64,000 bases of DNA from a virus: positions 64,001 through 128,000 of the IMG/VR virus record IMGVR_UViG_3300033064_003894; one strand, given 5' to 3'. How positions within the stretch are numbered: the stretch's first letter is position 1; the number at the start of each line of letters is the position of its first letter. Below the pieces are notes generated by a model, which did not search any database, was not told the origin of the DNA, and saw only the letters and a list, made by a program, of their open reading frames with translations. Of the stretch, positions 5,713 to 31,038 are shown piece by piece. The position numbers and the translations under genes were made by a program.

Positions 5713-6514
5713 AAAAAAATATATTAAAGGTACGTATTACACATTTTTGAGATGTCACCAGGTCTAAGAGGTCCCACTCCACTTCAATTTCACCTCGCAG
5801 AGTTTCTACGATCGACGACGTCGACGTGTACATGCATTCGAAAATCGAAAATGTGGATCCGGATAAACTTGTGGGTTAACTCCACTGCTCGTGTAGAGCT
5901 CACGTGTACCGACTTTCTGTAAGTCGAAGTGAATTCCTATTCCTTACTTTTAAGTAAGTGATAGATGAAAAGGTATCCTTTTCAAAGAAATAATACGGGT
6001 TTTTATAAGTTACTTTTTTTTCTTTAATAATCTCAATTAATTAGATACTCTCTTTTGAACTAGCTATACTTTCCGACATTTACCGAAAACGCTAAACCTA
6101 CGCGCGTCGCCTGGCCCTGCAGGTTTCGAGGAGAGGACATTCTCTACCCACCCCATCTGGATTAATTTTTGATTAAAGTGAAAGTTACAAATGCCTGCCA
6201 GGCGTGGGTCGCGACGGCGGGTTTAAATTATCCGGGCCCGCCGGCGCCTTTGTAAATGAAAATTTACCTGTCTTCACTTTTAGTGAAGTGACCATTGTTA
6301 TGGAATCCACAACCGAAATTGAGCTAGCTATAACTTATGTTGCATACTCTTTTTTCAACCTGCATAAGTTTATTTTCACCTTTATGGCTAAAGGTTTGTA
6401 GGTTAACTTCTTAACCACACATCTAAGGTTCTTAAGGAATCCTTAAGATGATTGCAACATTGCTTTATACCCAGAATGAATTCTTTTTTTAGTTTTATAT
6501 GATATAATTAGATC
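5713..6514. other. palindrome-dense non-coding region (natural polylinker-like array plus gapped dyads)
   Basis: Largest intergenic gap; many distinct 6-8-bp palindromes and at least seven gapped inverted repeats read directly from the sequence. Confidence 0.8.
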
Positions 6515-9500
6515 ATGAGGCTTGAAAAATTCAAAGCTCACGTAGAGAAAGCAATAAGTGACTCTTTGACAGACATTTCTGTCGGTTCAGGTCAAAAAAT
6601 AAGCTTTACGGGAGTATCTATGCCAGATGCTAAATATGGCATCTCTGAAGAGATTAAGGCAAAGATGACCGGATCTTCTTATGGAATACCTGTAAGGGCC
6701 TCATTTGAGACTTTAGATGAAGAGACGGGAGAGAAAGAAAAAAAGACGGTTCAAATATTTAAATTGCCAATGAGGACAAACCGTGGCACGTTTATTTGGA
6801 ATGGTAACGAGGTAAACATTAAGAATCAATATAGGAGAAGGCCGGGAGTGTACACATATTACTCTCAGGCTGATGGAGGACTATATTCTTCTAATTTTAA
6901 TATGTCAAAGGGTAGAGCCAAATTCTCTAAGAAGGTTAGGGTAGTAATTAACCCGGAAACTCTTAAATACGAGCTTAGACTTGGTGGATCAAAATTTGAA
7001 ATATATCCAATATTAAGAGCATACGGAATGTCAGACTCTGAGATAAGTGGAATTATGGGGAAAGATCTATATGACGCAAACTATATAGATGATTATGAAA
7101 AGGTTATAAGAAAGCTAGCCAAGTTTAGGACCGGGAAAGAGTACAAGAATATAGATGACGCATCTAAAGATATTGTTTCAGAGTTTTCAGAGATATCATT
7201 TGATGGAGGTATTAATGAATACACTCTTGGAAAGGATTTCTCGTCTATAAACAAAGACTTTTGGGGCAAGGTTATCGTTAAGCTAAGAGACGTGGCTGCT
7301 GGCAAGAAAGATCCGGACGATCCAGATGCTTCTTATTTCAGAGAATATCTTGAGCCAGAAGACAACATAATTGAGGCGATAAACAGCACTGCTGCGTCAA
7401 TATCTTCTAAAATAAAACAGAGAAGGGGGAAGTCCAATATAGGTAGAATACTTCAAAATATTAATTTTGATAAAGAAGTAAATAACCTTTTCACTACTGG
7501 GTCTTTGAAGGACATAAGAGATCAGTCTAATCCTGTTGACTGGTACACAGGTCTTGACTCCTTAACAATTTACGGACCTGGAGGGATAAGTGGGGCTCTT
7601 AGTGTGACAGAAGGAATGAGGCGTCTTCAGCCAACGCTGCTTGGATTTTCTGACCCAGTAAATACTCCTGACGACGGAGATAAGGTTGGAGTTGTTCTAT
7701 ACAAGACGACTGGAGCTGTAATAAAAGACAGGAAACCTCATATTAAAGTTAAGGACAAGAGCGGAAAGACCGTGGTGCTTCCAATTATAGACTTCTATCA
7801 CCAAAAAATAGGAATTGGCGATTACTCTCAAAAAGGAAAAATAGACTTAATATTTAAAGGGTCGGCTACGACAGGACTGTCTACTGACGTTAAGTACTTC
7901 ATACCAGAAGAATATCTTTTTAGCCACACTTCGAATCTTATACCAATGATAAGCTCAACGTATGGAGTTAGAGCAAACGTAGCCTCAAAGCAGATGGGTC
8001 AAGCTCTGCCTCTAAAGGACGCGGAAGAGGCCTTTGTCCAATCTGAATATGCAAAAAACAAAAAGGCAAAGTATCTTCAGGAGGGGCTAGATATGGACGA
8101 ATACGGAAATGTTAGGTCTGTATCAAACGGAGTTGTTGACTCTGTAAGTAAGACTTCAGGAAAGATCACAATAAGGATGGATGATGGAAAGAAGGTTACT
8201 CATGATGTACCAACGCACTATCCACTTAATTCAGAAAGCTTCTCTCATAACAATATAGTAGTGTCATCTGGTGACGAGGTTAAGAAGGGTCAAGTCATCG
8301 CAGAGTCTATATTTAGTAGAAATGGTGGGCTGGCAATAGGGAAGAACTTGAGAACGGCATTCCTGCCATATAAAGGATATAATTTTGAAGATGGCTTTGT
8401 GATAAGTGAAGGCGCGTCACAAAAGATGACGTCTCTTCATATGCACAAGTTTGAGGTATCTCTTGGTGGAGGGGTAAGGGCAGGGAAGAGACTGTATGTA
8501 TCTGTATTTCCAAATAAAGCGGCTCTAATAAAGCTAGACAACTATGATGATAGCGGTTCATTGAAAGAGGGCGCGTTGGTTTCATATGGGGCACCAGTAA
8601 TACTTGCGATTGAGAACAGGGACCTTACTCCTCAGCAGGCAACTATTGCGTCATTTAACAAAACAATGGCTAGTCTCATACAACCAAAAGACGTAAGCCC
8701 TATATACGAGGTTGAGTTCCCATCTAAGGTGGTTAGGGCTTATAAGGACAATAAAAGAATTATTGTGATGATCGAAAGCGAAGAGCCAATGGTTGAAGGC
8801 GATAAAATTGCTACAAGGTATGGAGGTAAAGGGATTGTTACAAAAATAGTTCCAGATGCATTAATGCCGGCATCGGAATCTGGCGAACCTGTAGAGGTTT
8901 TGTTTAATCCGCATGGTCTTCCGAGCCGGCTTAACTCGTCTCAGATTGTGGAGAATGCTCTTGGTAAGGTGTCAGAAAAGACAGGGAAGAAGTTCTTCAT
9001 ACCTGGGTTCTCAAAAGAGAGTTTTATTGATATAGCTAAGAGGGAGCTGTCTGCTGCTGGTCTATCTGATGAGGAGACCTTAATTGACCCTGAAACTGGA
9101 AAGCGTCTAGATAGGGTAGGCGTAGGAAATATGTATTACATGAAACTTAAGCATAGCGTAAGAAAGAAGCTTAAGTCTGGAGACGTAGGAGAATATGACA
9201 CAATTTTTGAGCAGCCAAAGAAGACCGAAAGAAACACAGCGAGAGGAATAGATGGACTGTCTCTTTATTCTCTGCTAGCTTCTGGGGCAAGGGCAAACCT
9301 TGCAGACATGGCGTCAGTTAAAGCAAATAGAAACGATGAGTTCTGGCGTGCCCTTCAGATGGGCATGCCTACGCCGTCACCAAAAGATCTCACAACAACT
9401 AAATATTTTACGTCTCTTTTGACTGGAATTGGGTTAAACGTAAATAAAACAAAGGATTTTCTGTCTATATACCCAGCGACAGACTCAGATATTGAGAGGA

Positions 9501-12500
9501 GAAGTGGAGGAGAAATAAGAGAAGCAAAGTTTATAAGAAGTAGAGACCTTAAGCCAGAAGACGGAGGATTTTACGACCCTTCAATTACTGGTGGCGCAAG
9601 AGGAGAAAAGTGGTCACACATATCTATTGGAACAACCATTCCTAATCCAATATTTGAAGAGCCTATTAAGGCTGTACTTGGCCTTAACAAGGATAAGTAT
9701 ACAGGTATTATGTCAGGAAAGTATAAAGTAAATGAAGCCGGAGATATAGATGATGATGGCAAGTATTCAGGAGGATTGGCCATTAAACATATGCTTGACA
9801 TTGTTGATGTCAACGCAGAAATAGACTCAATAAGGATAGAGAGCAAGCGTTATGTTGACGAAAAAAACTGGTCTGGCTTAAATCAAGCAAACCGGAAAAT
9901 AAGAATTCTTCTGAACGCTAAAAATCTAGGAAAGCCTCTTGGATCATTGTATACCATATCTAAGATCCCTGTATTGCCTCCAAGATTTAGGCAGATGATT
10001 ATGCTTAGTGATGGGACAATTCAAAACCCGCCAATTAATGAACTATACAGCGCCATAAAGCTTGAGGCTGATGGACTTAATACAGTACGTGACATTGGTA
10101 TAGATACAGAGGAAGAGGTAGTCAAGAGGGGCAATTCTATATATAAGCATGTATCTGCCGCATTCGGCGTGTCAGATCCTGTCTCGTTTGCTCTAAGGAT
10201 GAGAGCTATTGACGGAGGCATATTAAGACAAATTTCTCCTACCGACAAGCAAATGAAGGAAGGTTTTATTGGGAAAAGAATGCTTAACAAGCCTCAGTCT
10301 TTGAGTGGAGGCTCAACAATTATTTCAGATCCGGAGCTTCCTATGGATGAAGTTGGAGTTCCTTATGAGATGGCGAAGCAGATAATGAAGCCATTTACGA
10401 TACGCAAGATGGTTCAGTCTGGTTATACTCCTCTTAATGCCATTAAGGAAATAGAGGGGGACTCTCAAATGGCTCGTATTAAACTTGAAGAGGTTGTAAA
10501 GGAGAGACCTGTTCTAGTAAATAGGCATCCATCTCTACATAAGTTCAACTTCATGTCTCAGTGGGCAAAGATTGTCCCAGGAAGCGCTATTAGGCTTAAC
10601 CCGCTCGTTACTGGCGGGCTGAATGCAGATTTCGACGGGGACTCAATGATAGGAGATATAACGATTGCGTGTAAGTCAATGGCTGGTGTTGACCCGTCTG
10701 GAGGAGTAATAGACCATTCGTATTCAAGCATTGATATTGGAGATTTCCCAAGAAATGGAATAAAAGAAACAAAGAAAAACAAAACAGTATACTTCGTTCC
10801 TCCTGGGATATACGTTCCATCTGTATCTAAAGACGGAGTTCCTGAACTAATGAGGGTTACTGAATACCACGAGCACGATAACTGTGAGGAGTATATAGTA
10901 AAGCTTCATAATGGACACACGATTACTGTAAGTGGAGATCACAGTCTTACGTACTTCAACCCTGAAACGGCAGAGTTTGATAAGGTGTCTCCTGAAAACG
11001 CCTCGCATTTAGTTATTCCTAGGCTTGTTAAATTCAAGTCTACAACAGGTGCCAAGTTCCCAGAGGTCATTGAAAGAGGCGTGGCTAGGTCAGAAATAAT
11101 TTCAACCATTGGATTTTTCTGTGCAATCCTTAGGTTTAACCCAAGGTTAAGAAGCTACTCCTTTGCAAGGCACGCGTTGCTTGAAGAGCGCGTAGACATA
11201 ATCTCCAAATATTATGGTGCAGGGATAGATAAAGGAATATTTGTATGTCGCTTTATAAGTGATTGGATCTCTAAATACATTAACTGCTCAGATGAGCCAA
11301 GAATTCCATCTTACATATTGAGTATAAACGACGATGACCGCGCGGCTTTTGTATCAGGACTGCTTCAGGGTTCATCACTTATCTCCAAAAAAGACGGTCG
11401 CGGAGACATCTTTGAATGTTTTAAAGTAAAGAACTATCTTGGAGACATGGAGATTTTATTTAGGTCAGTTGGCATAGACGCCAATACCTTTATGCAAAAG
11501 AATCAGAATAAGAGAACTCCAGTATATTTTACAATTAATGCATCTACTGGAGACATGAGAAACTTTGTGCTTGACAATCCTGGACTGTTTTCCACACAAT
11601 TCATGGACAGATTTTATAAAACAAAAATATCTGAGATACCGGCAAAGTGTGTGAGTTCTGACATAATGCCTGTGCCGGTATGGATTTCGACGTACATAAG
11701 GTACACGGTTAAGGATAGGATTGACAACGAATCATTCAACAAAATGGTTTACAATGCATACAAGGATGTTCCATACGAGAAGTGGGTCGAGTCTGGAAGT
11801 GAAGTGTGGAACAGAAGAGTTATTAAGTTTTTCTTGGACAAAATGTCTGACGAAGAGATAGCAGGGATACCAGAAAACTTCCGAAGACTTGTGTATAATG
11901 AATCTATACGTTGGGAGCTAGTTGAGAGTGTAACTAAAACTGGACGAAAGATTAGAATGTATGACCTGACAGTTGAAGAAAACAAAAACTTTGTTGACTC
12001 AAAAGGGTATCTTGTGTGGGACACGATGAACATACATGCACCTGTTTCTGATAGAGCAGTGGTTGAGGCAGCGACAAAGCTTCTACCTAGCAAATTTCTT
12101 TATGGACCAGATAGGCATATTCTTCCAATGCCAAGTAACGAGTCAATTCTTGGCATATACATGTTATCTAAGAAGACTCTTAAGGATTCAGGAGAATCCT
12201 ATTCAAGCCTGGATAAAGCAGAGGGAGACTTCCTTAGCAATAAACTAAATATGAATGACTATATTAAGCTTAATGGCAAGAAGACAACCCTTGGAGGTGA
12301 GATTTTGGTGTCTGCCGTTAAGGAAAAGTTTAAAGATAAACTTCGAGCGTCAGACATAGATAAAAAGTATCTGCAATCTTTAGTTACTGAAATATATAAG
12401 GAGTCTCCTGAAGACGCAGCAGAGGCACTTAACAAGCTCAAAGACATTGGATATAAATATTCATATTTATATGGATTTAGCATATCACTTAATGACTTTG

Positions 12501-13909
12501 ATGCTCCTAACGATTTGAGGTCATATACAAAGGGGGTTATGGATTCTTTAGGTGACGACAATAAGAACTCTGAGAAGATGGATATTAAGCTTAGGGGGGC
12601 AGAGACGAAATTCCATAAGTTCTTTGATGACAATAGGCTCATGCAAATGTCCAGATCTGGCGCTAAAGGAAGCTGGAGCAATATTGCTCAAATGCTTCTT
12701 GCCCCTGGATATATGGAAGGAGCCGGAGGAATGATAGGAGAGAATCCAGTAAAGACAGGATATGCAGAGGGCATGTCTCCGTCTGATTATCTTAATACAT
12801 TATATGCAGCAAGAAGCGGCATTGTCAGTAAAGTTAGAGGTGTGGCCAAAGGAGGAGAGCTTGCGAAGAGCGAGGTTCACACAGCTATAGAAATTGTGAT
12901 AACAGAAAAAGACTGCGGAACGATTAATGGAATATACATGGACAGAGACGATAAGTTTATTGTTGGCAGGTTTGACGTAAGAGCTAAAGAGATAGATGAA
13001 CAGTACCTGTCTTCACATAAAGGTAAGCAGATAAAAGTGAGAAGTCCGTTGACATGCGAATCAATAAAAGGACTCTGCTCTATTTGCTACGGAATAAATG
13101 ACCAAGGCGTTATGCCTAAAGTTGGAGATCACGTTGGAATTGATGCTGCTCAAAGTACAACTGAGAGAATCACACAAAGCTTACTTCGAGCATTCCACGG
13201 AGGACGAGGAGCAAAAGAAAAGGGGACGACTGACCTAGCTAAAAACCTTCACAATTTGTTCGGAAAAATGCCGAAAACGTTTTCTGGAGAAGCCCCTGTA
13301 TCTATAGAGCCTGGAGTCGTAAAAAGAATTAATAAATCTCCTGCTGGAGGGTGGGATATATACGTTGACAATGAAAGATATAGAACCAGTGTTGAGGTTG
13401 ACCCCATAGTTTCTGTTGGAGACTCTGTGTCTCGTGGTCAAAAGCTAACTACAGGAATGGAGAATCCTCGTTCAATACTAAGAACTGGAGGATTAATTGG
13501 TGCTCGTCGCTTCATAACTGGTAAAATGAGAGAGATGTATAAGGGAACAGGAGTAGACATGAATCCAGTCCATTTTGAGGTTGTAACTAGGGGATTGACA
13601 GAGCACGCTCGCGTCATAGACCCAGGAGAGAGTCAGTATGAGTATGGAGATATTGACACAATAGCAACAATTGAACACAAAATTAAAAACGGAGAAAAGG
13701 TAAGATATGAACCAATTATGGCTGGAGCAGACAGGATACCTATCTATAGAAAAGATTTCTTATCTCAATCTGCAAGGCGAGAAGGTAAGAGGGGGATTAT
13801 TGAGTCAGCAGCCTCAGGAGCAAAATCAGAGTTGCATGGCGTAAATCCATTAAACTCCTGGATGCTAGGAGAGTTTAGGCCGACTATAGGTGATGGTGGA
13901 GTATACTAA
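6515..13909 (+). CDS. rpoBC: multi-subunit-type DNA-directed RNA polymerase, beta-beta' fusion, with intein
   Basis: beta motifs GYNFEDG, GDKIATRYGGKG, NPHGLPSRLN, YYMKLKH (to ~9442); beta' motifs PVLPPRFR, NRHPSLH, NADFDGD, SGAKGS, DCGT, VRSPLTC..C..CYG, trigger-loop AAQSTTERITQSLLRAFH. Confidence 0.95.
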   Translation: MRLEKFKAHVEKAISDSLTDISVGSGQKISFTGVSMPDAKYGISEEIKAKMTGSSYGIPVRASFETLDEETGEKEKKTVQIFKLPMRTNRGTFIWNGNEVNIKNQYRRRPGVYTYYSQADGGLYSSNFNMSKGRAKFSKKVRVVINPETLKYELRLGGSKFEIYPILRAYGMSDSEISGIMGKDLYDANYIDDYEKVIRKLAKFRTGKEYKNIDDASKDIVSEFSEISFDGGINEYTLGKDFSSINKDFWGKVIVKLRDVAAGKKDPDDPDASYFREYLEPEDNIIEAINSTAASISSKIKQRRGKSNIGRILQNINFDKEVNNLFTTGSLKDIRDQSNPVDWYTGLDSLTIYGPGGISGALSVTEGMRRLQPTLLGFSDPVNTPDDGDKVGVVLYKTTGAVIKDRKPHIKVKDKSGKTVVLPIIDFYHQKIGIGDYSQKGKIDLIFKGSATTGLSTDVKYFIPEEYLFSHTSNLIPMISSTYGVRANVASKQMGQALPLKDAEEAFVQSEYAKNKKAKYLQEGLDMDEYGNVRSVSNGVVDSVSKTSGKITIRMDDGKKVTHDVPTHYPLNSESFSHNNIVVSSGDEVKKGQVIAESIFSRNGGLAIGKNLRTAFLPYKGYNFEDGFVISEGASQKMTSLHMHKFEVSLGGGVRAGKRLYVSVFPNKAALIKLDNYDDSGSLKEGALVSYGAPVILAIENRDLTPQQATIASFNKTMASLIQPKDVSPIYEVEFPSKVVRAYKDNKRIIVMIESEEPMVEGDKIATRYGGKGIVTKIVPDALMPASESGEPVEVLFNPHGLPSRLNSSQIVENALGKVSEKTGKKFFIPGFSKESFIDIAKRELSAAGLSDEETLIDPETGKRLDRVGVGNMYYMKLKHSVRKKLKSGDVGEYDTIFEQPKKTERNTARGIDGLSLYSLLASGARANLADMASVKANRNDEFWRALQMGMPTPSPKDLTTTKYFTSLLTGIGLNVNKTKDFLSIYPATDSDIERRSGGEIREAKFIRSRDLKPEDGGFYDPSITGGARGEKWSHISIGTTIPNPIFEEPIKAVLGLNKDKYTGIMSGKYKVNEAGDIDDDGKYSGGLAIKHMLDIVDVNAEIDSIRIESKRYVDEKNWSGLNQANRKIRILLNAKNLGKPLGSLYTISKIPVLPPRFRQMIMLSDGTIQNPPINELYSAIKLEADGLNTVRDIGIDTEEEVVKRGNSIYKHVSAAFGVSDPVSFALRMRAIDGGILRQISPTDKQMKEGFIGKRMLNKPQSLSGGSTIISDPELPMDEVGVPYEMAKQIMKPFTIRKMVQSGYTPLNAIKEIEGDSQMARIKLEEVVKERPVLVNRHPSLHKFNFMSQWAKIVPGSAIRLNPLVTGGLNADFDGDSMIGDITIACKSMAGVDPSGGVIDHSYSSIDIGDFPRNGIKETKKNKTVYFVPPGIYVPSVSKDGVPELMRVTEYHEHDNCEEYIVKLHNGHTITVSGDHSLTYFNPETAEFDKVSPENASHLVIPRLVKFKSTTGAKFPEVIERGVARSEIISTIGFFCAILRFNPRLRSYSFARHALLEERVDIISKYYGAGIDKGIFVCRFISDWISKYINCSDEPRIPSYILSINDDDRAAFVSGLLQGSSLISKKDGRGDIFECFKVKNYLGDMEILFRSVGIDANTFMQKNQNKRTPVYFTINASTGDMRNFVLDNPGLFSTQFMDRFYKTKISEIPAKCVSSDIMPVPVWISTYIRYTVKDRIDNESFNKMVYNAYKDVPYEKWVESGSEVWNRRVIKFFLDKMSDEEIAGIPENFRRLVYNESIRWELVESVTKTGRKIRMYDLTVEENKNFVDSKGYLVWDTMNIHAPVSDRAVVEAATKLLPSKFLYGPDRHILPMPSNESILGIYMLSKKTLKDSGESYSSLDKAEGDFLSNKLNMNDYIKLNGKKTTLGGEILVSAVKEKFKDKLRASDIDKKYLQSLVTEIYKESPEDAAEALNKLKDIGYKYSYLYGFSISLNDFDAPNDLRSYTKGVMDSLGDDNKNSEKMDIKLRGAETKFHKFFDDNRLMQMSRSGAKGSWSNIAQMLLAPGYMEGAGGMIGENPVKTGYAEGMSPSDYLNTLYAARSGIVSKVRGVAKGGELAKSEVHTAIEIVITEKDCGTINGIYMDRDDKFIVGRFDVRAKEIDEQYLSSHKGKQIKVRSPLTCESIKGLCSICYGINDQGVMPKVGDHVGIDAAQSTTERITQSLLRAFHGGRGAKEKGTTDLAKNLHNLFGKMPKTFSGEAPVSIEPGVVKRINKSPAGGWDIYVDNERYRTSVEVDPIVSVGDSVSRGQKLTTGMENPRSILRTGGLIGARRFITGKMREMYKGTGVDMNPVHFEVVTRGLTEHARVIDPGESQYEYGDIDTIATIEHKIKNGEKVRYEPIMAGADRIPIYRKDFLSQSARREGKRGIIESAASGAKSELHGVNPLNSWMLGEFRPTIGDGGVY
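10643..12022 (+). mobile_element. intein (460 aa) in RNAP beta' directly after NADFDGD; Ser1...Trp-Asp/Thr+1; degenerate LAGLIDADG region
   Basis: Removal restores NADFDGD-TMNIH (cf. NADFDGDQMAVH); block B TVSGDHSL; block F MYDLTVEENKNF. Confidence 0.88.
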
Positions 13910-14610
13910 TGTTTTCAGAAAAACTTATAACAATTGCATGCGATGGAGACGACTTAGGTGTTCAGTGCAGAAACACATATGAAAGCCTTTGTGAGGCGCT
14001 TATAGATGACTTTTGGTTTGTAGTTTTGCCAAAAAATGAGAATCAAGCCTATCAACTTAATAGTTGGACAAAGAACAAGAATAACATAATTATTGCAAAT
14101 CATAATGAAGGCGTAGGTGGATATGTAGACAGGAATATATTTTTTGAGTACTTTCCTAAAAATAAGGTCTATACGCACATAATATCTGGTGTGATTGCAT
14201 CAGACGCATATTTTCAATTCTGCATATCTAAGCTTGAGGATAAAACAGTCGGAGCCGTTGGAGGAATAGGGTATTCCGCTCATGGAAATTGGGAGAGCAT
14301 AGAGGGAAACATGGTTCTTCCTAAGCATCTTTGTCACGTTCTGGATGACGCCCTTTGGTCATGGAAGAATACAGGATATAGGTATGGACCTCCGTTCCAG
14401 AGTCTTCCAGGTGGACACTATGATCATCAGATGCATCTCCACCAGCTTGGTCTAAATCTATGGTCTGGGCCATCAGAGTCTATAATAATGCTTCCAGAGG
14501 GATATGACATAATGGAAAATAATGATGAGTCGGTAAAGTATTTAGAAGACACCTGGAGAGATAAGATAGAGTTCCTTTTCCCGTCAGATGTAATGGAAAC
14601 GTACTCATGA
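13909..14610 (+). CDS. glycosyltransferase-like protein (GT2-like, degenerate)
   Basis: NEGVGG..RN and DKTVGAVG patterns of GT2; no clear DxD. Confidence 0.45.
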   Translation: MFSEKLITIACDGDDLGVQCRNTYESLCEALIDDFWFVVLPKNENQAYQLNSWTKNKNNIIIANHNEGVGGYVDRNIFFEYFPKNKVYTHIISGVIASDAYFQFCISKLEDKTVGAVGGIGYSAHGNWESIEGNMVLPKHLCHVLDDALWSWKNTGYRYGPPFQSLPGGHYDHQMHLHQLGLNLWSGPSESIIMLPEGYDIMENNDESVKYLEDTWRDKIEFLFPSDVMETYS

Positions 14611-14933
14611 TAGAGATGTCATTAATAGAGGTAGCCTTATCGATAATAGCGTCAGTAGGTATGACTATAATCATAACGCAAAGCACGTTATTTAAGAAGC
14701 CAAGAGACATCGTGTTTGCAAAAACAGTGATGCCATGGAAAACATTTCTTATGTGTCCTATATGTATAGGGTTCTGGGCAGGCATTATATCTTTTTCTAT
14801 TTTAGGAAAAAATTTTTCTATATTTGATATGTTCCTATATGGGTGCGTAGGGTCTGGAGTAAACCACTTCGTAGTGCTATGGAATAGGTCCATCATATCT
14901 GACTCACCCTCTAAATGTGGAAAATGCCAATAG
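14607..14933 (+). CDS. small membrane protein (DUF1360-like)
   Basis: Hydrophobic helices with FLMCPICIGFW. Confidence 0.6.
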   Translation: MIEMSLIEVALSIIASVGMTIIITQSTLFKKPRDIVFAKTVMPWKTFLMCPICIGFWAGIISFSILGKNFSIFDMFLYGCVGSGVNHFVVLWNRSIISDSPSKCGKCQ

Positions 14934-15277
14934 ATGCATCTACTAGAGAGAGAGTGTTCGAGAGAGCATATTGGAGGTGTGAAATGTGTCATTCTCTTGG
15001 TAAGCCCTATAACCAATTAGAGATACACCATATCGTAACCAAGGCAAGAGGTGTTGGGTGGACCTTCCTTAATCATGAGCTAAACCTATGTCTTCTATGT
15101 CACGGGTGTCACATGAATGTCCATAAGCAGGGGATAAAGCAGTGGCTATCTAAACGACCTCCAGACGTTTGCTATCAATGTGATCAGGTTCTGGTTCCGC
15201 TTGAAGACAGTCGTGGGGTTGGGTGCCAAGAATGTAAAGAGGTACTTTTTCAGACTGTTCATTCTTCTTTATTATAA
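14915..15277 (+). CDS. HNH endonuclease
   Basis: RERVFER..RCEMC, EIHHIV, NLCLLCHGCH. Confidence 0.85.
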   Translation: MWKMPIDASTRERVFERAYWRCEMCHSLGKPYNQLEIHHIVTKARGVGWTFLNHELNLCLLCHGCHMNVHKQGIKQWLSKRPPDVCYQCDQVLVPLEDSRGVGCQECKEVLFQTVHSSLL

Positions 15278-16412
15278 ATCTTGTGATAGCTGCGAGTATT
15301 TTTGTGTTAGGATGTATGCCGCATAAATTTATTAAATCAGGTATATATTTTGAAAATCTAGATACGCTGTGCACATCGGAAGAAAGGATATAAACAATTC
15401 GTCCAGAAACAACATTTGAGAATTCGAAAGAGTCTCCGCTGTATAAGTTATTTATCTCTCTTAGCGCCATAGCTCTTGTTTTATCTATATAAGCTTTAGT
15501 GCATTTTATTCTAACCGTAGTGTTTAATCCTAGCACTGGTTCTTTCCTATTTAGCTCTGACTTAAATATTCTTGTTTTCTTGCCGTTAACAACAAGTTTA
15601 TACCTATATGAAAGTTTACATATTGAATTAATTAGTATTTCTACAAAGTCATCGATGAACTTAAAGTCATTGTAGAAAATCTTGATGTAAATGTTATCAA
15701 TGTATCGTATGTAATTTATTGAAAGCTTTTTTGGATACTCAAACTTATTGTCAATTCTACGTAGACGATCAAAAAGTCGACTTTTAATAGAAGCTGAAAT
15801 GTACTCTCCGGAAGTTAGTGAATATTGGGAGTGCATAGCCTTTGGACACGATGACTTCTTACTAATCTTCTCTCCATTTATTGTTATTTGAGTATCAGAA
15901 GTAGAAGCTTCTAGTCTAGACAGACAAGACAGTATTATGCAGTCAAAGCCTTGAAGGTATATATTGCTAATGTCTTGAGACATAGCGCTGCCCTGTGAAA
16001 GAACTCTAACGTCGTTCCCTACAAAAACAAACGCATTGTCGACAAAAGTGATTAAATTTTTGTGTTTAGAGGCGAAGCAGTCATAAAAGATTGAGTGATA
16101 AAAATTTTTAAAGTCAAGTCCTATAAGTACACTTTTATCTCCTTCATCAACCGGGCTTCGTTTTGTTATCAAAGACAAGACCAGAGCCTTCATATTTGTT
16201 CCACCAAAAGGATATCCAAAAACAGACTTCTTTAAATTAACACTCGTGTTATGTAATGAGTCGGAGCCATCGAAGATAAATCCTCTAAGCGCCCACAGTT
16301 TTTCATAATGGTCGTTCGTTGTACCAAAGTCGTGAACTAATCGGAAAGAGCTTTTATCTTTTTTTGGTATAAGAACGGCTCTAGGTAATACTCTTTTTGA
16401 GCCTTCTTGCAT
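15150..16412 (-). CDS. retron-like reverse transcriptase with non-canonical YIDN active site
   Basis: IPKKDKSSFRLV, LDFKNFYHSI, LSQGSAMSQDISN, YIRYIDN (YIDN at 15693-15704), NGKKTR, VLG. Confidence 0.85.
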   Translation of the reverse strand: MQEGSKRVLPRAVLIPKKDKSSFRLVHDFGTTNDHYEKLWALRGFIFDGSDSLHNTSVNLKKSVFGYPFGGTNMKALVLSLITKRSPVDEGDKSVLIGLDFKNFYHSIFYDCFASKHKNLITFVDNAFVFVGNDVRVLSQGSAMSQDISNIYLQGFDCIILSCLSRLEASTSDTQITINGEKISKKSSCPKAMHSQYSLTSGEYISASIKSRLFDRLRRIDNKFEYPKKLSINYIRYIDNIYIKIFYNDFKFIDDFVEILINSICKLSYRYKLVVNGKKTRIFKSELNRKEPVLGLNTTVRIKCTKAYIDKTRAMALREINNLYSGDSFEFSNVVSGRIVYILSSDVHSVSRFSKYIPDLINLCGIHPNTKILAAITRFIIKKNEQSEKVPLYILGTQPHDCLQAEPEPDHIDSKRLEVV

Positions 16413-16433
16413 TAGTGTATTATTCCGTATAAA

Positions 16434-17630
16434 ATGACAATATTAATGGGAGCACCCCAGGTACCGTCGTCGTCATACTCTAGCACACATTTTGGTGTTG
16501 TTAAGGGGCCATATACAAGAAATAGCGAGGACTCTAAGTCTCAAGAGTATACAGGACTGTATTGGGTATCTATAGACACAGCAAGTGGCACCTCTATAGA
16601 TAGGGTCTGTATGGTTTCTTCTACGTCATACAGCTACTCGCAAGGTGTAGGAATGTTCAGGCTGCCCTCTCCAGGAGAGTCAGTTTTGGTTGCAAGGACA
16701 GTAAATAATCAATTTTATATTATTGGCGGAACGGCACAAAGGACTATAGGAAATCTTGACTCTGCCATACCAAAATTAGGATCTCCTCTTAAACCAATTT
16801 CAGAAAATGAGTTAATTATAGTAGGGAATAGAACTGACTTTCCTCTTAGCCAATCATATATTAAGTTTAGCAAGTCTGGAAGCATACGTATTCAGGCAGG
16901 CGAATATCCTAAAATAGTTCTATCTAAGTCTAAGGGAGAGATAGAGGAATCTTCTTACAGGAAAACTACGTGGACAAGGAGTGGATATGAAAAATGGGGC
17001 GTTGATGGGTCAGTGTCTTATGGGATACGTGAGCCAATGAAGGCTCCAGCGAAATGGGAGCGATACGTAAGAACTAGAGAGGCTGACAACTCTGCACCCT
17101 TTGTTCATACTCAAGAGGGGGACCTTGAAGGAGACAGGGATATACTGACTAAGGTTGACGCAATTATTTTCTCAAAGAACGTAAATAATAAATCATTTTC
17201 AATATCATATAAGAGCGGCAAAACAGTAATGGGCTTTGGAGCCATTGGTTTGCCATCAAATGGACTTGTTAGGCCAAAGGTTACGCAAATGCAATCAATT
17301 ATTGACAGCTCGTCTTCAAGCATTACTATCAATCCTGATCTAAATAATATGATTTTAAGATCTTATGATATAATTATTAGAGGCGGTAGGACCAGCTCAG
17401 ACAGAACAGGAAAAGTAACAATAGAGGGCCGGGAGCTCTCTGTACAAATGACAGGACCAATATCAATACGTGGCACTTCGGAAATATTCATAAGTGCCCC
17501 AAACATTAGGATGTCGTCTAACGTAATTGTTGATGGCACACTAACGGTTAACGGTACGGCTAATGTAAATGGCACAATTTTATGTTCTGGTCCTGTTTTT
17601 GGGAATCCGTGCACTTGGACACCTAATTAA
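16434..17630 (+). CDS. baseplate spike/hub protein (gpV/Gp5-like)
   Basis: OB-fold signature GMFRLPSPGESVLV; C-terminal beta-helix-like repeats (VIVDGTLTVNGTANVNG). Confidence 0.7.
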   Translation: MTILMGAPQVPSSSYSSTHFGVVKGPYTRNSEDSKSQEYTGLYWVSIDTASGTSIDRVCMVSSTSYSYSQGVGMFRLPSPGESVLVARTVNNQFYIIGGTAQRTIGNLDSAIPKLGSPLKPISENELIIVGNRTDFPLSQSYIKFSKSGSIRIQAGEYPKIVLSKSKGEIEESSYRKTTWTRSGYEKWGVDGSVSYGIREPMKAPAKWERYVRTREADNSAPFVHTQEGDLEGDRDILTKVDAIIFSKNVNNKSFSISYKSGKTVMGFGAIGLPSNGLVRPKVTQMQSIIDSSSSSITINPDLNNMILRSYDIIIRGGRTSSDRTGKVTIEGRELSVQMTGPISIRGTSEIFISAPNIRMSSNVIVDGTLTVNGTANVNGTILCSGPVFGNPCTWTPN

Positions 17631-19487
17631 ATGGAAACTAACCTAGGAAACAACGTAGGTCTATGGCCTCAAAAGATCTTTGAGTACGTTAGCGCAGAAT
17701 ACAACTATATAATTCCATATATACAGAATATATCATTCAAGAGAATTGACATTGTAAATGGAGCGGCAATTGGTGGCATCACGATTGGTAATAAATCTTC
17801 TGGAATGATGGCAATTGTGCCATTAATAGTCTCAGAATTCAACCTTGCCCCAATGGACGTAATGATTATGGAAGAAGACTTGTATATTCCAATGACAGAG
17901 GCAAGAGTTTTGGAATATCTTGGACAAAACTTTGGGTCTCACATACCTAAAACAAATAATAACTATAGCACAGGAGGACGTATGCCAGTGACCCCTTTGC
18001 CTCCTGGGCACAGAAATGGCGACGTAAATAAGTATTCTAGTATATTTAGGCACGCATCTGAAAAGGCTGGCTTTGGACCAGGAGTACTTAAAATTATAAT
18101 GGACAGTATGCCTCACCTTATAAAAAAAGACGAGTCTGTTGCAAAGAGAGTTATGTCAGTGATCTCAGACATCCCGTACAGAGCTGTATGGATAAAGAGA
18201 GACTCTGACAAGAATACATGGACTGCTATATGTTCTGATGACGCAGGAAGAATAAATTTAATCGATGGCAAGGATGCGATAATACGAACTCTTTCTAAGT
18301 TTGATCCAGAGGTTGCCGAAGAGATGAAGGTGTCTGACAACATATATTTTAGTAAATATGGGAATAAGCCTATTGTCTTTGAGTCCATATCAGAGCTACC
18401 TGAAGTTCTTAGTAACACAGGAAGGGTTGCCGTGTTTGGGAAAAACAAAGATCTTATTGTAGGTCAATTTTATCATAGAGTTTCAGATATGGCAGGGAGG
18501 AGTCTAGGCCTGAGCATTTGGTTTAATGACAGCAACTGGTCAGTATCAGAGGAGATGACTGGTTACATGATACGAGAGGGACATGCTGATCGTACTCCTA
18601 CGGTTAAAAATAGAAGAAGTTACTGCTTTAGTTTTATTCATAGTGACAATGACTATATGTGCACAATGCCTTTCAAGGTTGTGTCTGAACCTAAAATAGA
18701 GGGTGGAGACTCTAAAGAAATGATAGTAGATATTGTCGACTCTAATGGGAAAGATGCAGTTCTATATTATAGCTCAGATGTATTCAAGCCTCACTGTAAT
18801 AAAGCAGGAGATAAAATAAGATACTATATTCCAAGAGATTGGAAGATGCATGATGTAGGAGAGTGCAAAATATCTCTATCGTATGTAGGAGGAAAATCAT
18901 TAGCAGATTTGGCGTCAACTGCAGCAAACACTATATCTCTGTCATTATTGGATGGCGTGTATTACATATCAGGAGAGCATTCAAAAAATTTGGCAACATC
19001 ATTCGACGGAGATTATGATCCCAGGCTAGGGAAGTCTGCAGACACATTAAATAAGGCCATATGGAACCTGGTAATGTTTGGCATGTCAGAAGGAGATGCA
19101 AGAATGTGTATTTCTTCATTGCACGAACACGGAGGCAGGATAACTATAGGGAATATAGCACCATTTGTAGCGTACGAGCCAAAGATTAGGGGAATACCTA
19201 CGGAGCTTATAAGTCTAGCAAGTTCTGTATCTAGCGAATCAGTTGACTCTATCCTTGGTCTTGGCATGTCTGACATATTGTCAAGGGATGAGCTAAGCCA
19301 GCATTCGCTCGAAATAAGAAAGCTTGAGAGCGTTTTGGCGAAACTGCTATTCAATGTTAGGATAGGTGCGTTAAACATTGAAGAGGATATGATAGTCAAG
19401 GCAATGAAATATCTTTCTGTTGTCGTAGACGAGATAGAAGCGTCAAACTCTTCAATAGTAAGAGAAAAGAAGAAAGAGGGACTATAA
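17631..19487 (+). CDS. hypothetical protein, probably virion-associated
   Basis: 618-aa ORF co-oriented with spike and terminase. Confidence 0.55.
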   Translation: METNLGNNVGLWPQKIFEYVSAEYNYIIPYIQNISFKRIDIVNGAAIGGITIGNKSSGMMAIVPLIVSEFNLAPMDVMIMEEDLYIPMTEARVLEYLGQNFGSHIPKTNNNYSTGGRMPVTPLPPGHRNGDVNKYSSIFRHASEKAGFGPGVLKIIMDSMPHLIKKDESVAKRVMSVISDIPYRAVWIKRDSDKNTWTAICSDDAGRINLIDGKDAIIRTLSKFDPEVAEEMKVSDNIYFSKYGNKPIVFESISELPEVLSNTGRVAVFGKNKDLIVGQFYHRVSDMAGRSLGLSIWFNDSNWSVSEEMTGYMIREGHADRTPTVKNRRSYCFSFIHSDNDYMCTMPFKVVSEPKIEGGDSKEMIVDIVDSNGKDAVLYYSSDVFKPHCNKAGDKIRYYIPRDWKMHDVGECKISLSYVGGKSLADLASTAANTISLSLLDGVYYISGEHSKNLATSFDGDYDPRLGKSADTLNKAIWNLVMFGMSEGDARMCISSLHEHGGRITIGNIAPFVAYEPKIRGIPTELISLASSVSSESVDSILGLGMSDILSRDELSQHSLEIRKLESVLAKLLFNVRIGALNIEEDMIVKAMKYLSVVVDEIEASNSSIVREKKKEGL

Positions 19488-22545: not shown

Positions 22546-25335
22546 ATGCAGGAGATAAAGATACCAACTAGTAAGCTTATAGAAAAGGCTTTCTATGTTG
22601 ACATGGACCTTCCGTTCTCATTTAAGGAGCGTGAGTATCTTCTTCCTATATACGACAATAATGATAAAATCATTGTTCTATATTTTGCAAGACAGTCGGA
22701 AAAAAGCGTTTTAGAGTTTTCTCGTGTAATAAACCAATATGGCGAAAGAGTCCAAATAAAAGATTTGAATGTTGGAGATAAAGTCGCAACATTAAATACC
22801 GATGGCGTGACCATTGGCACAAGCCGTGTCATTTGGAAATCAAGAAGATACAAAAAAGACTGCTTAAGACTAAATACAAAACTAAATTATTCAATAGAGG
22901 TTGCAGGAACTCATCCAATTAGGCAGTGGAATCGTTGGACGGAAGCGAAAGCTTTAGCAGTTGGAGATAGAATTGCAACAGCACGTTTTATTGAGACGAA
23001 TCATGAAGAAAATAATATACCAGATGATGTAATTAAATTTATAGGATATATGATTGCTGATGGTAGTATTATAAAAGCGATAAGCTTTACGCAACGTATA
23101 GATTCTCTAGTATTGAAAGACTTTAGGGATATTTGCTCTAATATGGGATTTGTATATAGAGAACGTTACAGAAATAGTGATGTATTAATGCTTCACTTTG
23201 TGACTAAATCTCCGGCAGCAGAGTTATTGAGAAAATATGGTATTTACGGAAAATCTTCTTTTAATCATGCACTCCCCGCCTGTTTAATGAGGTTAGATCT
23301 TAGACAAACGAAAATACTTATTGAATCATTGTGGTCGTGTGATGGATATGTTAAGAAGTGCGAAGGTGAAGAGACTGACTACAAAATTTCTTACTGTTCT
23401 GTATCTAAAGGGCTATTAGAACAAATGCAGGCATTGCTCTGGAAATTTAAGATAGCTTCAAGAATAAGAAAATTTAAGCCGACCTTATATAAAGGAACGG
23501 GAAAGTATGCATATAGTTTATATGTAAGAACTAGAGAGAGTCAAAATATTTTCCATGAAACATTTAAAATTATTGGTAAAGAGTCATGCTTTGTTTGTGC
23601 CCAATCAAGAGACAACAGAGATACATTTCCTATTGAAATCAATGAGGATATATATGAATTAGAAAGGACTAGGGTGAAACCGAGAAGTCATAAGCCTCTA
23701 TATAAAAACGGTCTAAGGAAGACCTTAGAATATCCCTTAAGCAAAGTTAAATTCCGCAAATACTTAAAGCATTTCAGGACAGCTGGAGGTTATGATCAAG
23801 CATTGGTGGATAAATTAGATATACACTCAGACACGGACCTTTTTTGGGATAAGATTGAAAGCGTAGAAGATATAGGAGAACAGTGGTGTTACGACATTGA
23901 AGTAGAGGGAACGAATAATTTCTTGGTTGATGGGGTTGTCACTCATAATAGTACAACATTGGCAAATAAAATACTTTTAAATAGTATTACGAACAGGAGA
24001 TTTAGATCTCTTTACGTCACCTCAGCGGATGCTCAGGCTAAAGAATTTTCAGTAGATAAGCTGCAACCTAAATTAAAGTATTCTCCGACAATAAATAGGC
24101 ACTTTTGGGGCTCTCAGCCAGAAGCAGACAACGTGTTTTCTAAAGAGCTTAAGAATGGAAGCAGAATATTGATAAGGAGTATGTTTAAGAGTGCAGATAG
24201 GATAAGGGGAATTTCAGCAGACCTCCTGGCGGTCGACGAATTGCAGGACATAAATCCTGATTTCCTCGCAGTAGCGGAAGAGTGTCTTTCTCACTCAAAT
24301 TATAAGCTAAGAATGTATGCTGGGACGCCTGACACCGCTTTGGATGCATTAGATCAGGTCTGGTCATTTTCTGATAAAACAGAGTTCGTATTTAAATGTC
24401 CTAAAGGCCATTGGAACAGACAAGACCATGCAATGGTGGCAAGAATTACCAAGGCTGGAATTTTATGCAAAACATGTGGAGAGGTATTAGATAGGCGTAC
24501 CGGTGAATGGGTGGTTATGAATAAACAAGGAAGATATAAAGGATACAGAACTAGTCAAATGATGGTGCCGTGGATAACGGTTGATGAGCTTATAGATAAA
24601 AGAGAGCGTTACTCATCTAAGAGGTTTTTTAACGAAGTTGCAGCTCTTCCTTATGATGCGATAGGTGCTCCTATAAATGAAGGGCACTTAAGAAAATGTT
24701 GCGATGAAGGGTTTAAGATGATCAAAGACGGGGTCTATCCAAAAATAGATAGAAATGTTCATGTATTTATGGGCTCCGATTGGGGCTCTGGGTCCGCCTC
24801 ATACACAGTAATAAGTTTTTGGGCTCATATAGGTGGGAAGTGGACGCTGTTAAGGGCAAAGAAATATACAGGCGTCGAGTCTGATCCGGCTTTACAAATG
24901 AATTTAATACTATCTGAAATGGACAGAATTAATCCTATAAGAGTAGGGTCTGACTGGGGGTTTGGATTCCTTAACAACGCTCAACTAAAACTTCATTATA
25001 AAAAGGGTGAGGTGTGTGAAATATTTAGCAGTTCTGGAGCTAGCCCGATAACTAGAGACAGCTTATCTGGAAGGTTTGTGATCAACAGGTCATATATGAT
25101 GAGCAGAGTATTTAATATGATATTAGAGGAGAGGGTAAGGTTCCCGTGCTGGGAAGACTTTGCTCAGTTTGCTCCAGACATTCTTTCTATTAGAGCTGAC
25201 GACCCGGATGAAAAGCCAGGACAGAGACAGATAAAATATGTACGTGTTGCGCCAGATGATTTTTTTCATTCAATGATGTACGCATTAATTATGGGTGAAA
25301 TTCATACAGGAAAGCTCTTGATAGATGCCATTTGA
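22546..25335 (+). CDS. terL: terminase large subunit (GpA-like) with intein
   Basis: Walker A RQSEK|STT split by the intein; DRIRGISAD, Walker B LAVDE, GTP, Zn motif CPKGH..CKTC, nuclease GSDWG, PDDFFHS. Confidence 0.9.
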   Translation: MQEIKIPTSKLIEKAFYVDMDLPFSFKEREYLLPIYDNNDKIIVLYFARQSEKSVLEFSRVINQYGERVQIKDLNVGDKVATLNTDGVTIGTSRVIWKSRRYKKDCLRLNTKLNYSIEVAGTHPIRQWNRWTEAKALAVGDRIATARFIETNHEENNIPDDVIKFIGYMIADGSIIKAISFTQRIDSLVLKDFRDICSNMGFVYRERYRNSDVLMLHFVTKSPAAELLRKYGIYGKSSFNHALPACLMRLDLRQTKILIESLWSCDGYVKKCEGEETDYKISYCSVSKGLLEQMQALLWKFKIASRIRKFKPTLYKGTGKYAYSLYVRTRESQNIFHETFKIIGKESCFVCAQSRDNRDTFPIEINEDIYELERTRVKPRSHKPLYKNGLRKTLEYPLSKVKFRKYLKHFRTAGGYDQALVDKLDIHSDTDLFWDKIESVEDIGEQWCYDIEVEGTNNFLVDGVVTHNSTTLANKILLNSITNRRFRSLYVTSADAQAKEFSVDKLQPKLKYSPTINRHFWGSQPEADNVFSKELKNGSRILIRSMFKSADRIRGISADLLAVDELQDINPDFLAVAEECLSHSNYKLRMYAGTPDTALDALDQVWSFSDKTEFVFKCPKGHWNRQDHAMVARITKAGILCKTCGEVLDRRTGEWVVMNKQGRYKGYRTSQMMVPWITVDELIDKRERYSSKRFFNEVAALPYDAIGAPINEGHLRKCCDEGFKMIKDGVYPKIDRNVHVFMGSDWGSGSASYTVISFWAHIGGKWTLLRAKKYTGVESDPALQMNLILSEMDRINPIRVGSDWGFGFLNNAQLKLHYKKGEVCEIFSSSGASPITRDSLSGRFVINRSYMMSRVFNMILEERVRFPCWEDFAQFAPDILSIRADDPDEKPGQRQIKYVRVAPDDFFHSMMYALIMGEIHTGKLLIDAI
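22705..23949 (+). mobile_element. intein (415 aa) with LAGLIDADG homing endonuclease in terminase Walker A
   Basis: Starts SVLEFSRV, ends CYDIEVEGTNNFLVDGVVTHN/S; FIGYMIADGS and LIESLWSCDGY motifs. Confidence 0.92.
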
Positions 25336-27519: not shown

Positions 27520-27594
27520 TGGAGCCCCCTCCCAGAATCGAACTGAGCTATCTAGTTTACAAAACTAGGGCATCGCCAACAATGCTTAAGGGGC
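27520..27594 (-). tRNA. tRNA-Thr(TGT)
   Basis: Cloverleaf; anticodon arm CTAGT-TT TGT AA-ACTAG; encoded CCA. Confidence 0.9.
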
Positions 27595-27595
27595 G

Positions 27596-27685
27596 TGGCG
27601 GAGGAGGAGGGAGTCGAACCCCCATTACGCTATGACACGTTTAGCCGATTTCAAGTCGGTGTGCTACGCCAGTTGCCGCTCCTCC
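27596..27685 (-). tRNA. tRNA-Ser(TGA)
   Basis: Loop CT TGA AA, long variable arm, G73, CCA; D-arm atypical. Confidence 0.82.
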
Positions 27686-27691
27686 GAACCG

Positions 27692-28525
27692 TTATTGTAT
27701 CAAAGTTCCAGACTTTACAACAAAACTTTCTTTTTCTAAAGATATCTTTTTATATGGATCAAATCTTCGTCCCTCTCCAATTGCGTGTATACCTACTGGG
27801 TTATTCGTAAGTAATGTAGTCAGGTGTGCAGTGTCAACAACTTCATGACTGTGACCATATATGCAGACATCAAAATAATTTAACAGTTCTTCGTTTATGT
27901 CTGCACAGAAAAAAGAGTTGAATCTAGAGTCTGGACCAGTTTTATACATATCATGAGTGCATCTGTAAGATGGCAGGAAATGCGACAAAAGAACCTTATG
28001 TTTATAATTACAAACTTCGTGTTTTCTGAACTGATCAATAGAGTTGCAGGCAATTTGGTGAAGCTCTCTAATTGAAGAAGCTCTAAATCTTGCATTCATG
28101 TATTTTATCTGTCTAAAATCCTGAATTCTAGAAACAATATCATACTCTTGAACTGGGTCTTTAAGTCCAGACCATAAGGTGGTTCCAAAAACAACTATGT
28201 TTTTATCAATAGAGCACGAGCTATTATTTAAAATTTTAATCCTTCCTTTATGGTTGGAAGAATTGAATTTCTTAATAATATGGTTAGTAGGCTCTATTCC
28301 TCTTTTGTAGTATTCGTGGTTTCCTGGGACAAAGATAAGCTTCCTGTATTTGTATTTCTTCTGAATGCTCTCTATGTACGGTATGCTTACTTTTATATCA
28401 TTTGAGACGTCTCCGACTACAGCTAAAATGTCGGCAGATTTCTCGATAGAGAAGTCTCGCCGCTTTTTTCCTATAAACTCATTGTAGTCAACGTGAATAT
28501 CAGAGATGTATTGGATGTCAGTCAT
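27692..28525 (-). CDS. calcineurin-like metallophosphoesterase
   Basis: ISDIH, VGD, PGNHE, HFLP, YGHSH; start moved to ATG 28525 because the longer ORF overlaps a tRNA. Confidence 0.9.
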   Translation of the reverse strand: MTDIQYISDIHVDYNEFIGKKRRDFSIEKSADILAVVGDVSNDIKVSIPYIESIQKKYKYRKLIFVPGNHEYYKRGIEPTNHIIKKFNSSNHKGRIKILNNSSCSIDKNIVVFGTTLWSGLKDPVQEYDIVSRIQDFRQIKYMNARFRASSIRELHQIACNSIDQFRKHEVCNYKHKVLLSHFLPSYRCTHDMYKTGPDSRFNSFFCADINEELLNYFDVCIYGHSHEVVDTAHLTTLLTNNPVGIHAIGEGRRFDPYKKISLEKESFVVKSGTLIQ

Positions 28526-28531
28526 GATTGA

Positions 28532-28608
28532 TGGTAGTGGAGGACGGAGTCGAACCGACACTGTCAGGCTCCTAAAGCCTGTTTCTCTTCCATTTGGAAT
28601 ACTCCACC
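28532..28608 (-). tRNA. tRNA-Leu(TAG), short variable loop
   Basis: CAGGC-TT TAG GA-GCCTG; GGTTCGACTCC; CCA. Confidence 0.85.
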
Positions 28609-28652
28609 ATTGCCAGTTGATTAATTATACCAAATTATATACAATCGTTTAG

Positions 28653-29300: not shown

Positions 29301-29339
29301 ATTTGTGGATTGTTAGTTATTAAATAGTAAACTGCTTCT

Positions 29340-30314: not shown

Positions 30315-30344
30315 TCGAAGTTACGAAAAATAATAGATATATTT

Positions 30345-30932: not shown

Positions 30933-30948
30933 GATTTCTTATTGTTGG

Positions 30949-31024: not shown

Positions 31025-31038
31025 TTAGTTTGGTAAGG

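Follow-up and report, generated by a model that had tools for sequence, protein, structure and literature searches.

The subject of this analysis is a reverse transcriptase (RT) gene carried by a 64,000-nucleotide stretch of viral DNA, namely bases 64001-128000 of the 139,837-bp IMG/VR record IMGVR_UViG_3300033064_003894 (G000, judged 79% complete); this whole stretch is called the window below, and positions are counted from its first base. The protein belongs to a family in which the second aspartate of the motif C signature YxDD is always asparagine, and, judged by the sequences of its members, YxDN is the kept, selected state of this family. With somewhat more confidence than doubt, we regard the protein as a working but remodeled stand-alone RT-type polymerase that would act in trans.

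The RT family and its motif C

In the translation, RT motifs 1-7 are all found in order, as was checked on the family alignment. Motif 1 (LIPKK) begins near residue 10, the short N-terminus being a trait of the whole family, and motif A reads GLDFKNFYH, motif D reads VNGKKT with K279, and motif E/7 reads PVLGLN. Motif C lies within YIRYIDN, in which YIDN replaces YxDD, with D239 encoded by GAT (15696-15698) and N240 by AAC (15693-15695). The spacing from the QG of motif B to the Tyr of YIDN is 96 residues, versus approximately 35 in retron Ec86 in a hidden Markov model (HMM) alignment, indicating an insertion of approximately 60 residues. This palm insertion is variable in sequence, with 82-116 residues between QG and YxDN across the family; it is modeled with a predicted local distance difference test (pLDDT) score below 50 and shows no RNA structure signal. 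The original prediction, made from the window alone, had described an intact open reading frame (ORF) with RT motifs in order, YIDN, VLG, QGxxxSQ, and an insertion of about 60 residues, and all of these features can be read in the translation.

Relatives were sought with an exhaustive phmmer search over 1.84 billion representatives, which returned six (E 9e-42 to 8e-17), and with a family-profile search of a 5.8-billion-sequence set, which returned six more. The resulting family comprises 15 sequences, approximately 13 of them distinct, all from metagenomic contigs, with 24-60% mutual identity and 26-31% identity to the window protein. No homologue was found in the genomes of 185,579 prokaryote species, and none in 50,697 deposited phage records.

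The pattern Y-[IM]-R-Y-[IV]-D-N is unvarying in all 15 sequences. Thus, among the canonical three catalytic aspartates, that of motif A and the first of motif C are present, and the second of motif C is Asn throughout. Among the four members for which DNA is available, the Asn codon is AAC in two and AAT in two, and the codons of the flanking Tyr, Arg, and Asp also differ synonymously. Because synonymous variation accompanies an invariant D-N, sequencing error and decay are excluded, and purifying selection on the motif is indicated. It had been asked of the original prediction whether YxDN is conserved in homologues under selection, and this is what the alignment and the codons show; the opposite outcome, namely homologues all with YxDD and a window copy marked by relaxed selection or a sequencing error, does not agree with a D-N pair in 15/15 sequences written with both AAC and AAT.

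Conservation extends well beyond motif C. Further invariant positions are A-F-V, Q-G-S, S-Q-D, N150, D157, N276, K279, N-R, L-G, N297, and several thumb residues, and the strings QGSxxSQDxxN, INxxK, and [VI]LG[LM]N are invariant or nearly so across the 15 sequences. The motif A Asp, the Lys of IPK, and the Arg of motif 2 are found in every member having those regions. Overall, the residues of the polymerase site other than the Asn are invariant or nearly so, including the Lys and Arg of the fingers, the motif A Asp with its aromatic gate, the Q-G of motif B, the first Asp of motif C, and the Lys of motif D. Since the residues that contact metal, deoxynucleoside triphosphate (dNTP), and primer are fixed and the Asn never varies, this pattern is, on the evidence of the alignment, that of a used active site and not of a relic.

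Relationship to retrons and other RTs

The class of the protein was assigned by ranking against PADLOC, NCBIfam, and PDB profiles in place of an RT tree, and the scores are all far under the family cut-offs (for example, 33.6 bits versus 235 for retron_St85). The window protein matches Pfam RVT_1 with E=1.8e-4, which is under the gathering score, NCBIfam retron_St85 with 2.4e-8, and, in PADLOC, the CRISPR-associated RT model with 2e-8 and retron type XIII with 7e-8. When members were scanned singly against PADLOC, retron RT models were top for every member (types XI, XIII, XII, and IX at approximately 1e-15, down to 2e-15), and the non-retron scores of the family were 2e-10 for CRISPR RT, 2e-6 for Drt2, and 7e-5 for AbiA. 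In NCBIfam, where retron models likewise led for all members, the scores of the family were 1e-13 for retron_St85 (best member), 5e-11 for Ec67, and 2e-7 for the group II model, the last for a single member only. The abortive infection (Abi)/unknown group (UG) class, which includes defense-associated RTs (DRTs), was not the best match, as the Drt2, UG20-23, and AbiA models scored 1e-3 to 1e-6, versus 1e-15 for retron models.

Structural comparison points in the same direction. The family profile searched against PDB gave Ec86 RT at the top with 1.3e-8, mostly via the full-length helical thumb (Ec86 residues 214-321). An AlphaFold2 model of the protein has a mean pLDDT of 60, with 70-85 in the core; Foldseek placed prokaryotic RTs generally at the top, and an ESM Atlas search returned RT clusters only. 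After re-ranking with VIA-align, the retron RTs Eco2 (Z 16.0), Ec83 (14.9), Eco7 (14.7), and Ec78 (14.6) were followed by DRT2 (14.4), G2L4 (13.7), and bRT (11.6), an RT of the diversity-generating retroelement (DGR) type. Retron RTs are therefore supported as the closest known relatives by profile and fold, and the term retron-related is warranted; the earlier description of the protein as retron-like agrees with the PADLOC and NCBIfam rankings, the match to the Ec86 thumb, and fold Z scores of 14-16.

The family shares with the retron RTs Ec86/Eco1, Ec67/Eco2, Ec83, and Ec78/Eco7 its best profiles and folds, the full-length helical thumb, the QG of motif B, INxxK, and the Gly of VTG, but there are also differences. 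It has YxDN for YADD, N[MA]xx[LM] for NAxxH, and [VI]LG for VTG; the N-terminal extension of approximately 40-50 residues is absent, and a palm insertion of 60-100 residues has been gained. Moreover, the family has no msr/msd and no conserved effector, and it is found only on phage or metagenome contigs. In retron RTs, which have been divided into types I-XIII, region X (NAxxH) lies between RT2 and RT3, and its His is the most conserved residue (Mestre et al., 2020; PMC7736814). The corresponding region of the present family is HGYPxGNxN[MA]xx[LM], in which the Asn is kept and the His position is occupied by L, M, V, or I in all members; in the original prediction, too, NAxxH was not recognizable. 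Region Y (VTG) is [VIM]LG in all members, with the Gly kept and Leu for Thr. By these comparisons, the family appears to stand outside the retrons proper in its NAxxH histidine, msr/msd, and effector, with VTG partly kept, and it likewise falls outside the DGR, group II intron, and UG/Abi classes.

Two other groups of RTs bear comparison. The viral retron-like clades RTC3 and RTC5 from a survey of IMG/VR (Hlife 2024, PMC13681634) are likewise virus-encoded and retron-related, with suggested roles beyond DGR mutagenesis; the survey reports no YxDN, synteny, or leaderless arrangement, and the present family was compared with these clades by description. As this protein scores under the RVT_1 gathering threshold, the family may have escaped a screen based on Pfam. 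G2L4 is a group II intron-like RT that has been domesticated and functions in DNA repair; it is similarly free-standing, without its ancestral RNA partner, and has an altered motif C (YIDD, with a beta-branched x) (bioRxiv 10.1101/2022.03.14.484287). However, both Asp residues are retained in G2L4, which is a member of the group II branch. Literature word searches found no publication on YxDN in prokaryotic or phage RTs, nor any description of this family, which we would class among the retron-related RTs as a new variant confined to viruses.

Genomic setting, expression, and candidate partners

Relatives of the RT were located on two IMG/VR contigs of one phage (one of them, G001, of 156 kb and 93% complete), on two JGI contigs of the same phage, on a TARA scaffold, and on an ENA contig. 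Four distinct genomic contexts were read, namely the window, L002-5/G001, L006 (TARA), and L007. In all four, the same gene order is observed, consisting of a fused beta-beta' RNA polymerase (RNAP), a 233-aa protein, a membrane protein of approximately 108 aa, an HNH gene, the RT on the opposite strand, the spike gene, a 618-aa protein, and, farther along, the large terminase. The position and orientation of the RT are the same in the four contexts, with the HNH gene adjoining it in each, and the neighboring genes are only 27-65% identical. The 233-aa neighbor forms a family of 13 clusters whose contig sizes equal those of the RT-bearing contigs (139837, 136858, 64268, 42207, 28483, and 9055), and this matching distribution argues that the RT would be present wherever the phage lineage has been sampled.

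The phage is of the myovirus type; it encodes a tail sheath, a major head protein, and a terminase that bears an intein. In capsid and RNAP, the cultured phages that come closest, with approximately 28-30% identity, are Vibrio phages D69, D148, and D181 and Salmonella phage Arash. No RT is detectable in these four phages, and D69 has no opposite-strand gene after its RNAP. The features of the RT gene and its immediate surroundings are collected in Table 1. A 178-aa antisense ORF at 14480-15016 was also considered and rejected as spurious, since it overlaps conserved plus-strand genes.

Table 1. Features of the RT gene and adjoining genes, with positions in the window.
Feature	Position	Strand	Basis or remark
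RT-like ORF (P0001), 420 aa	15150..16412	-	Intact frame; RT profile and fold matches
Family-conserved core, residues 1-395 (fingers, palm, retron-like helical thumb)	15228..16412	-	Homologues end at approximately residue 395
Lineage-specific C-terminal tail, approximately 25 aa	15150..15227	-	In no homologue; overlaps 3' end of convergent HNH gene
Motif A catalytic Asp100 (GAC), within LDFKNFYH	16113..16115	-	Kept in every member having the region
Motif B, QGSAMSQDISN, residues 140-150	15963..15995	-	Q, G, S, S, Q, D, and N family-invariant
Variable insertion of approximately 60 aa between motifs B and C, residues approximately 165-228	15729..15920	-	Family alignment and model
Motif C, Y237-I-D239-N240 (TAC ATT GAT AAC)	15693..15704	-	D-N in 15/15 sequences
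Promoter-like word GGAATAA	16420..16426	-	7 nt 5' of the RT ATG
Convergent HNH endonuclease gene	14915..15277	+	Pfam HNH E=1.3e-5 and PHROG HNH families; conserved context, possible role with the RT
Divergent spike-like gene	16434..17630	+	Weak Phage_spike match, E=0.028; syntenic in relatives

The RT appears to be expressed on its own. The arrangement GGTATAA-N6-ATG occurs 10 times in G000, compared with 0.4 in shuffles, and five times in the relative G001, compared with 0.5. In L002/G001 and in L006, one copy leads exactly into the RT start, and the RT start in the window carries the variant GGAATAA-N7-ATG (word at 16420-16426). A sigma-70-like -35/-10 match (16446-16419) uses the A-T part of GGAATAA as its -10 element, with the A of the RT ATG as the predicted start. 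Because the word lies 6-7 nt before the ATG, the RT would have a leaderless mRNA of its own. In G001 this word is also found ahead of a family A DNA polymerase gene, and in G000 ahead of an exonuclease-like gene; we infer that the RT belongs to a non-structural expression class, placed antisense within a block of virion and RNAP genes.

There is no room for a retron-type RNA upstream of the gene. Between the RT start at 16412 and that of the spike gene at 16434 lie 21 bp, and the gap between the RT and its divergent neighbor measures 21-33 bp across loci. Fold tests, a scan of the four loci, and Rfam did not reveal an adjacent msr/msd with inverted repeats. The upstream 300 nt fold like shuffled sequence in the window (z -0.08) and in L002 (-0.03), and L006 (-2.7) gave the sole signal; a sliding fold scan along the four loci, which used mononucleotide shuffles, found no consistent structure. 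Rfam returned nothing at E<=1 around the RT (13800-17700), group II introns included, and only tRNAs, again with no group II intron, at the gathering score genome-wide. When all non-coding gaps of G000 were compared with those of G001 using nhmmer, only tRNA regions were conserved. The 21-bp gap, the missing fold signal, and the lack of any Rfam RNA bear out the earlier view of an orphan RT upstream of which an msr/msd cannot fit. Since no RNA gene lies beside it, the RT would have to act in trans on a template or primer encoded elsewhere.

Candidates for such an RNA had been named at 5713-6514 and 35497-35607, but neither can be linked to the RT, as both fail the test of conservation against G001. 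The first was rejected because it folds equally well on either strand, lacks conservation in G001, and matches Rfam at chance level only; it is an 802-bp gene-free, palindrome-rich stretch before the RNAP gene that includes GC-rich blocks and is unalignable with the relative. The second was taken as 35490-35635 on the minus strand; it folds well (z -3.1), but the 93%-complete G001 has no counterpart to it, and it was rejected for this reason. The fold of this 146-nt gap in the tRNA cluster has two parts, a small hairpin and then a long closed stem. It matches no Rfam family and is possibly a small RNA of the phage. A tandem repeat beside the tRNAs of G001 was discarded as an RNA candidate as well, as it is coding: at L020 15183-15899 (G001 95183-95899), a 93-bp repeat in 3.2 copies, 98% identical, lies in a 238-aa ORF with a repeated VDNFPATQTVDGS-type peptide.

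A protein partner was sought in the same contexts. A co-oriented ORF overlaps the RT stop in L002 (11136-11795, plus strand, 219 aa) and in L006 (3163-3726, plus strand, 187 aa); these two are fast-evolving, with 28% mutual identity and the shared words LPKYYKI and SLKFPY. Neither falls into a Pfam or PHROG family, and G000 and L007 contain no homologue of them. Therefore, the coupled ORF is not a required partner, and no conserved retron effector is linked to the RT in the four contexts, this ORF being restricted to L002 and L006.

Several other features of the window were noted. A single 2464-aa ORF (6515-13909, plus strand) fuses RNAP beta (Rpb2 domains) and beta' (Rpb1 domains) and contains an intein-like insertion at residues approximately 1425-1830, right after the NADFDGD catalytic loop; the fusion is kept at 48% identity in relatives, whereas Vibrio phage D69 has the two regions as separate ORFs. 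The large terminase gene (GpA_ATPase; 22546-25335, plus strand) is split by an intein with a LAGLIDADG homing endonuclease, and the terminase of the relative L002, of 516 aa, is without this insertion. A nicotinamide phosphoribosyltransferase (NAMPT) gene is located at 31416-32801 on the minus strand. At least 15 tRNAs lie within 27520-39818, and G001 has far fewer in the corresponding region (five in the 40 kb scanned). In addition, a group I intron match (34803-35258, minus strand; 49.5 bits versus a gathering score of 50, E=4e-11) is flanked by tRNA-like halves at 34754-34786 and 35249-35284 and is probably an intron-split tRNA gene, with no ARAGORN call.

Competing explanations and possible role

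The invariant Asn might suggest that the protein has lost catalysis and is a pseudo-enzyme kept as a nucleic acid or nucleotide binder, for instance one that titrates retron or DRT components of the host, as a decoy or sponge, or that serves as an RNA chaperone. We consider this rather unlikely, although engineered loss of this Asp does inactivate HIV-1 RT, the retron region X histidine and N-terminal extension are missing, and the RT sits among fast-evolving genes. For HIV-1 RT, the D186N mutation disrupts the binding of metal at the polymerase site (PMC1976467), and polymerase activity is absent from the D185N/D186N double mutant (PMC5498913). These results weigh against a working polymerase that acts in trans, as do several observations on the family itself: the conserved pocket would equally fit a protein that merely binds nucleotide or nucleic acid; the RT evolves at spike-like speed, with approximately 30% identity to relatives; its GC content (0.352) is lower than that of the genome (0.403); the genomic contexts read are four only; and, with G000 79% complete, a distant partner RNA could sit in the missing part.

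However, the other catalytic and dNTP-contact positions are invariant, which is rarely so in pseudo-enzymes, and the Asn is fixed, not variable. Active sites with D-N also occur in nature, as mononegavirus polymerases have GDN as their native catalytic motif (PMC12518664) and intact nematode BEL/Pao retroelements with identical LTRs (long terminal repeats) naturally carry YVDN RTs (bioRxiv 10.1101/2021.11.23.469668). These nematode (belpaovirus) RTs show the same Asp-to-Asn change at motif C in apparently intact, recently mobile elements; being eukaryotic LTR-retroelements with no specific relationship to the present family, they represent a convergent likeness. As regards a decoy, anti-defense cargo would be expected to be patchy, whereas the RT is syntenic and co-distributed with its core neighbors. 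The proposal of a dead RT or decoy made in the original prediction loses ground on these points, namely the other polymerase-site residues kept, the natural D-N sites, and the synteny of the gene in every readable relative.

A second alternative is a true retron or retron-like exclusion system whose msr/msd-type RNA lies elsewhere or is too divergent to be recognized, and whose multicopy single-stranded DNA (msDNA) would guard against competing phages. Retron RTs are, after all, the nearest known relatives, the fast-evolving ORF coupled to the RT stop in L002 and L006 could be an effector, and the structured 146-nt element in the tRNA cluster lies on the same strand as the RT. Nevertheless, this explanation is quite improbable: NAxxH lacks its histidine and VTG is replaced by VLG; no RNA flanked by inverted repeats adjoins the RT, and the placement of the promoter word allows no 5' leader; the coupled ORF is absent from the window and L007; and the 146-nt element has no counterpart in G001, where only tRNAs are conserved among the non-coding gaps.

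Much less credible still is a DGR RT that diversifies the adjacent spike gene or a tail gene. The RT gene does adjoin the spike gene, and its motif B ends in SQ, which is reportedly typical of DGR RTs. DGR-type motif 4 is [LIV]GxxxSQ, and the SQ of the present RT is preceded by QG. However, the fold match to the DGR RT is weaker (Z 11.6 versus 14-16 for retrons), and DGR RTs are not among the PDB profile matches of the family. Self-comparison of G000 (139.8 kb, 79% complete) and G001 (156 kb, 93% complete) revealed no template repeat/variable repeat (TR/VR) pair with adenine-specific mismatches, the only long imperfect repeats being without adenine bias. Finally, the idea that the gene is decaying, or that its Asn codon arose by an error of assembly or sequencing, deserves next to no credence, as its one point of support, that Asp and Asn codons are one base apart, is set against intact ORFs, D-N in 15/15 assemblies, and the use of both Asn codons.

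Under the explanation that we favor, a working stand-alone polymerase, the RT would derive from the retron branch of prokaryotic RTs and would be a fixed gene of one lineage of aquatic myoviruses of approximately 140-160 kb. Its active site would be remodeled and not lost, with the second motif C Asp changed to Asn and the fingers and motif A-E residues that hold dNTP, primer, and template kept, while the palm would have gained a variable loop of approximately 60-100 residues and the retron-type N-terminal extension would be missing. It would be transcribed alone, antisense to the flanking virion/RNAP operon and leaderless from a phage promoter word. The enzyme would still polymerize, possibly with an altered metal preference or limited processivity, and its template or primer would be supplied in trans as a phage or host transcript, a tRNA, or DNA.

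The role of the RT could lie, in order of preference, in phage nucleic acid metabolism or repair, in phage-host or phage-phage conflict, or elsewhere; we lean toward routine phage nucleic acid metabolism in view of the conserved position of the gene and the promoter word that it has in common with replication genes. The adjacent HNH gene may invite the idea of nick-primed synthesis, though general synteny explains the adjacency equally well. We also advance, tentatively, a narrower possibility, in which a virus-only branch derived from retrons has been retuned, through the Asp-to-Asn change, the palm insertion, and the disappearance of the N-terminus that binds RNA, for a reaction distinct from classical msDNA synthesis and routine in infection. 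Such a reaction could, for example, be DNA synthesis that takes place on tRNAs or on transcripts of the phage or host and is short, Mn-dependent, or primer-independent.

The best-known role of phage-encoded RTs is DGR mutagenesis, and the retron-type and Abi-type RTs of prophages serve defense. A fixed, orphan, retron-derived RT with a non-canonical active site in large phages of lytic type would point to an unrecognized use of RTs, or of RT-like DNA synthesis, in infection. The family would also be a natural experiment on the role of the second motif C aspartate. An active protein would provide a compact RT scaffold whose metal or template properties are unusual, and an inactive one would represent a rare conserved RT pseudo-enzyme in viruses.

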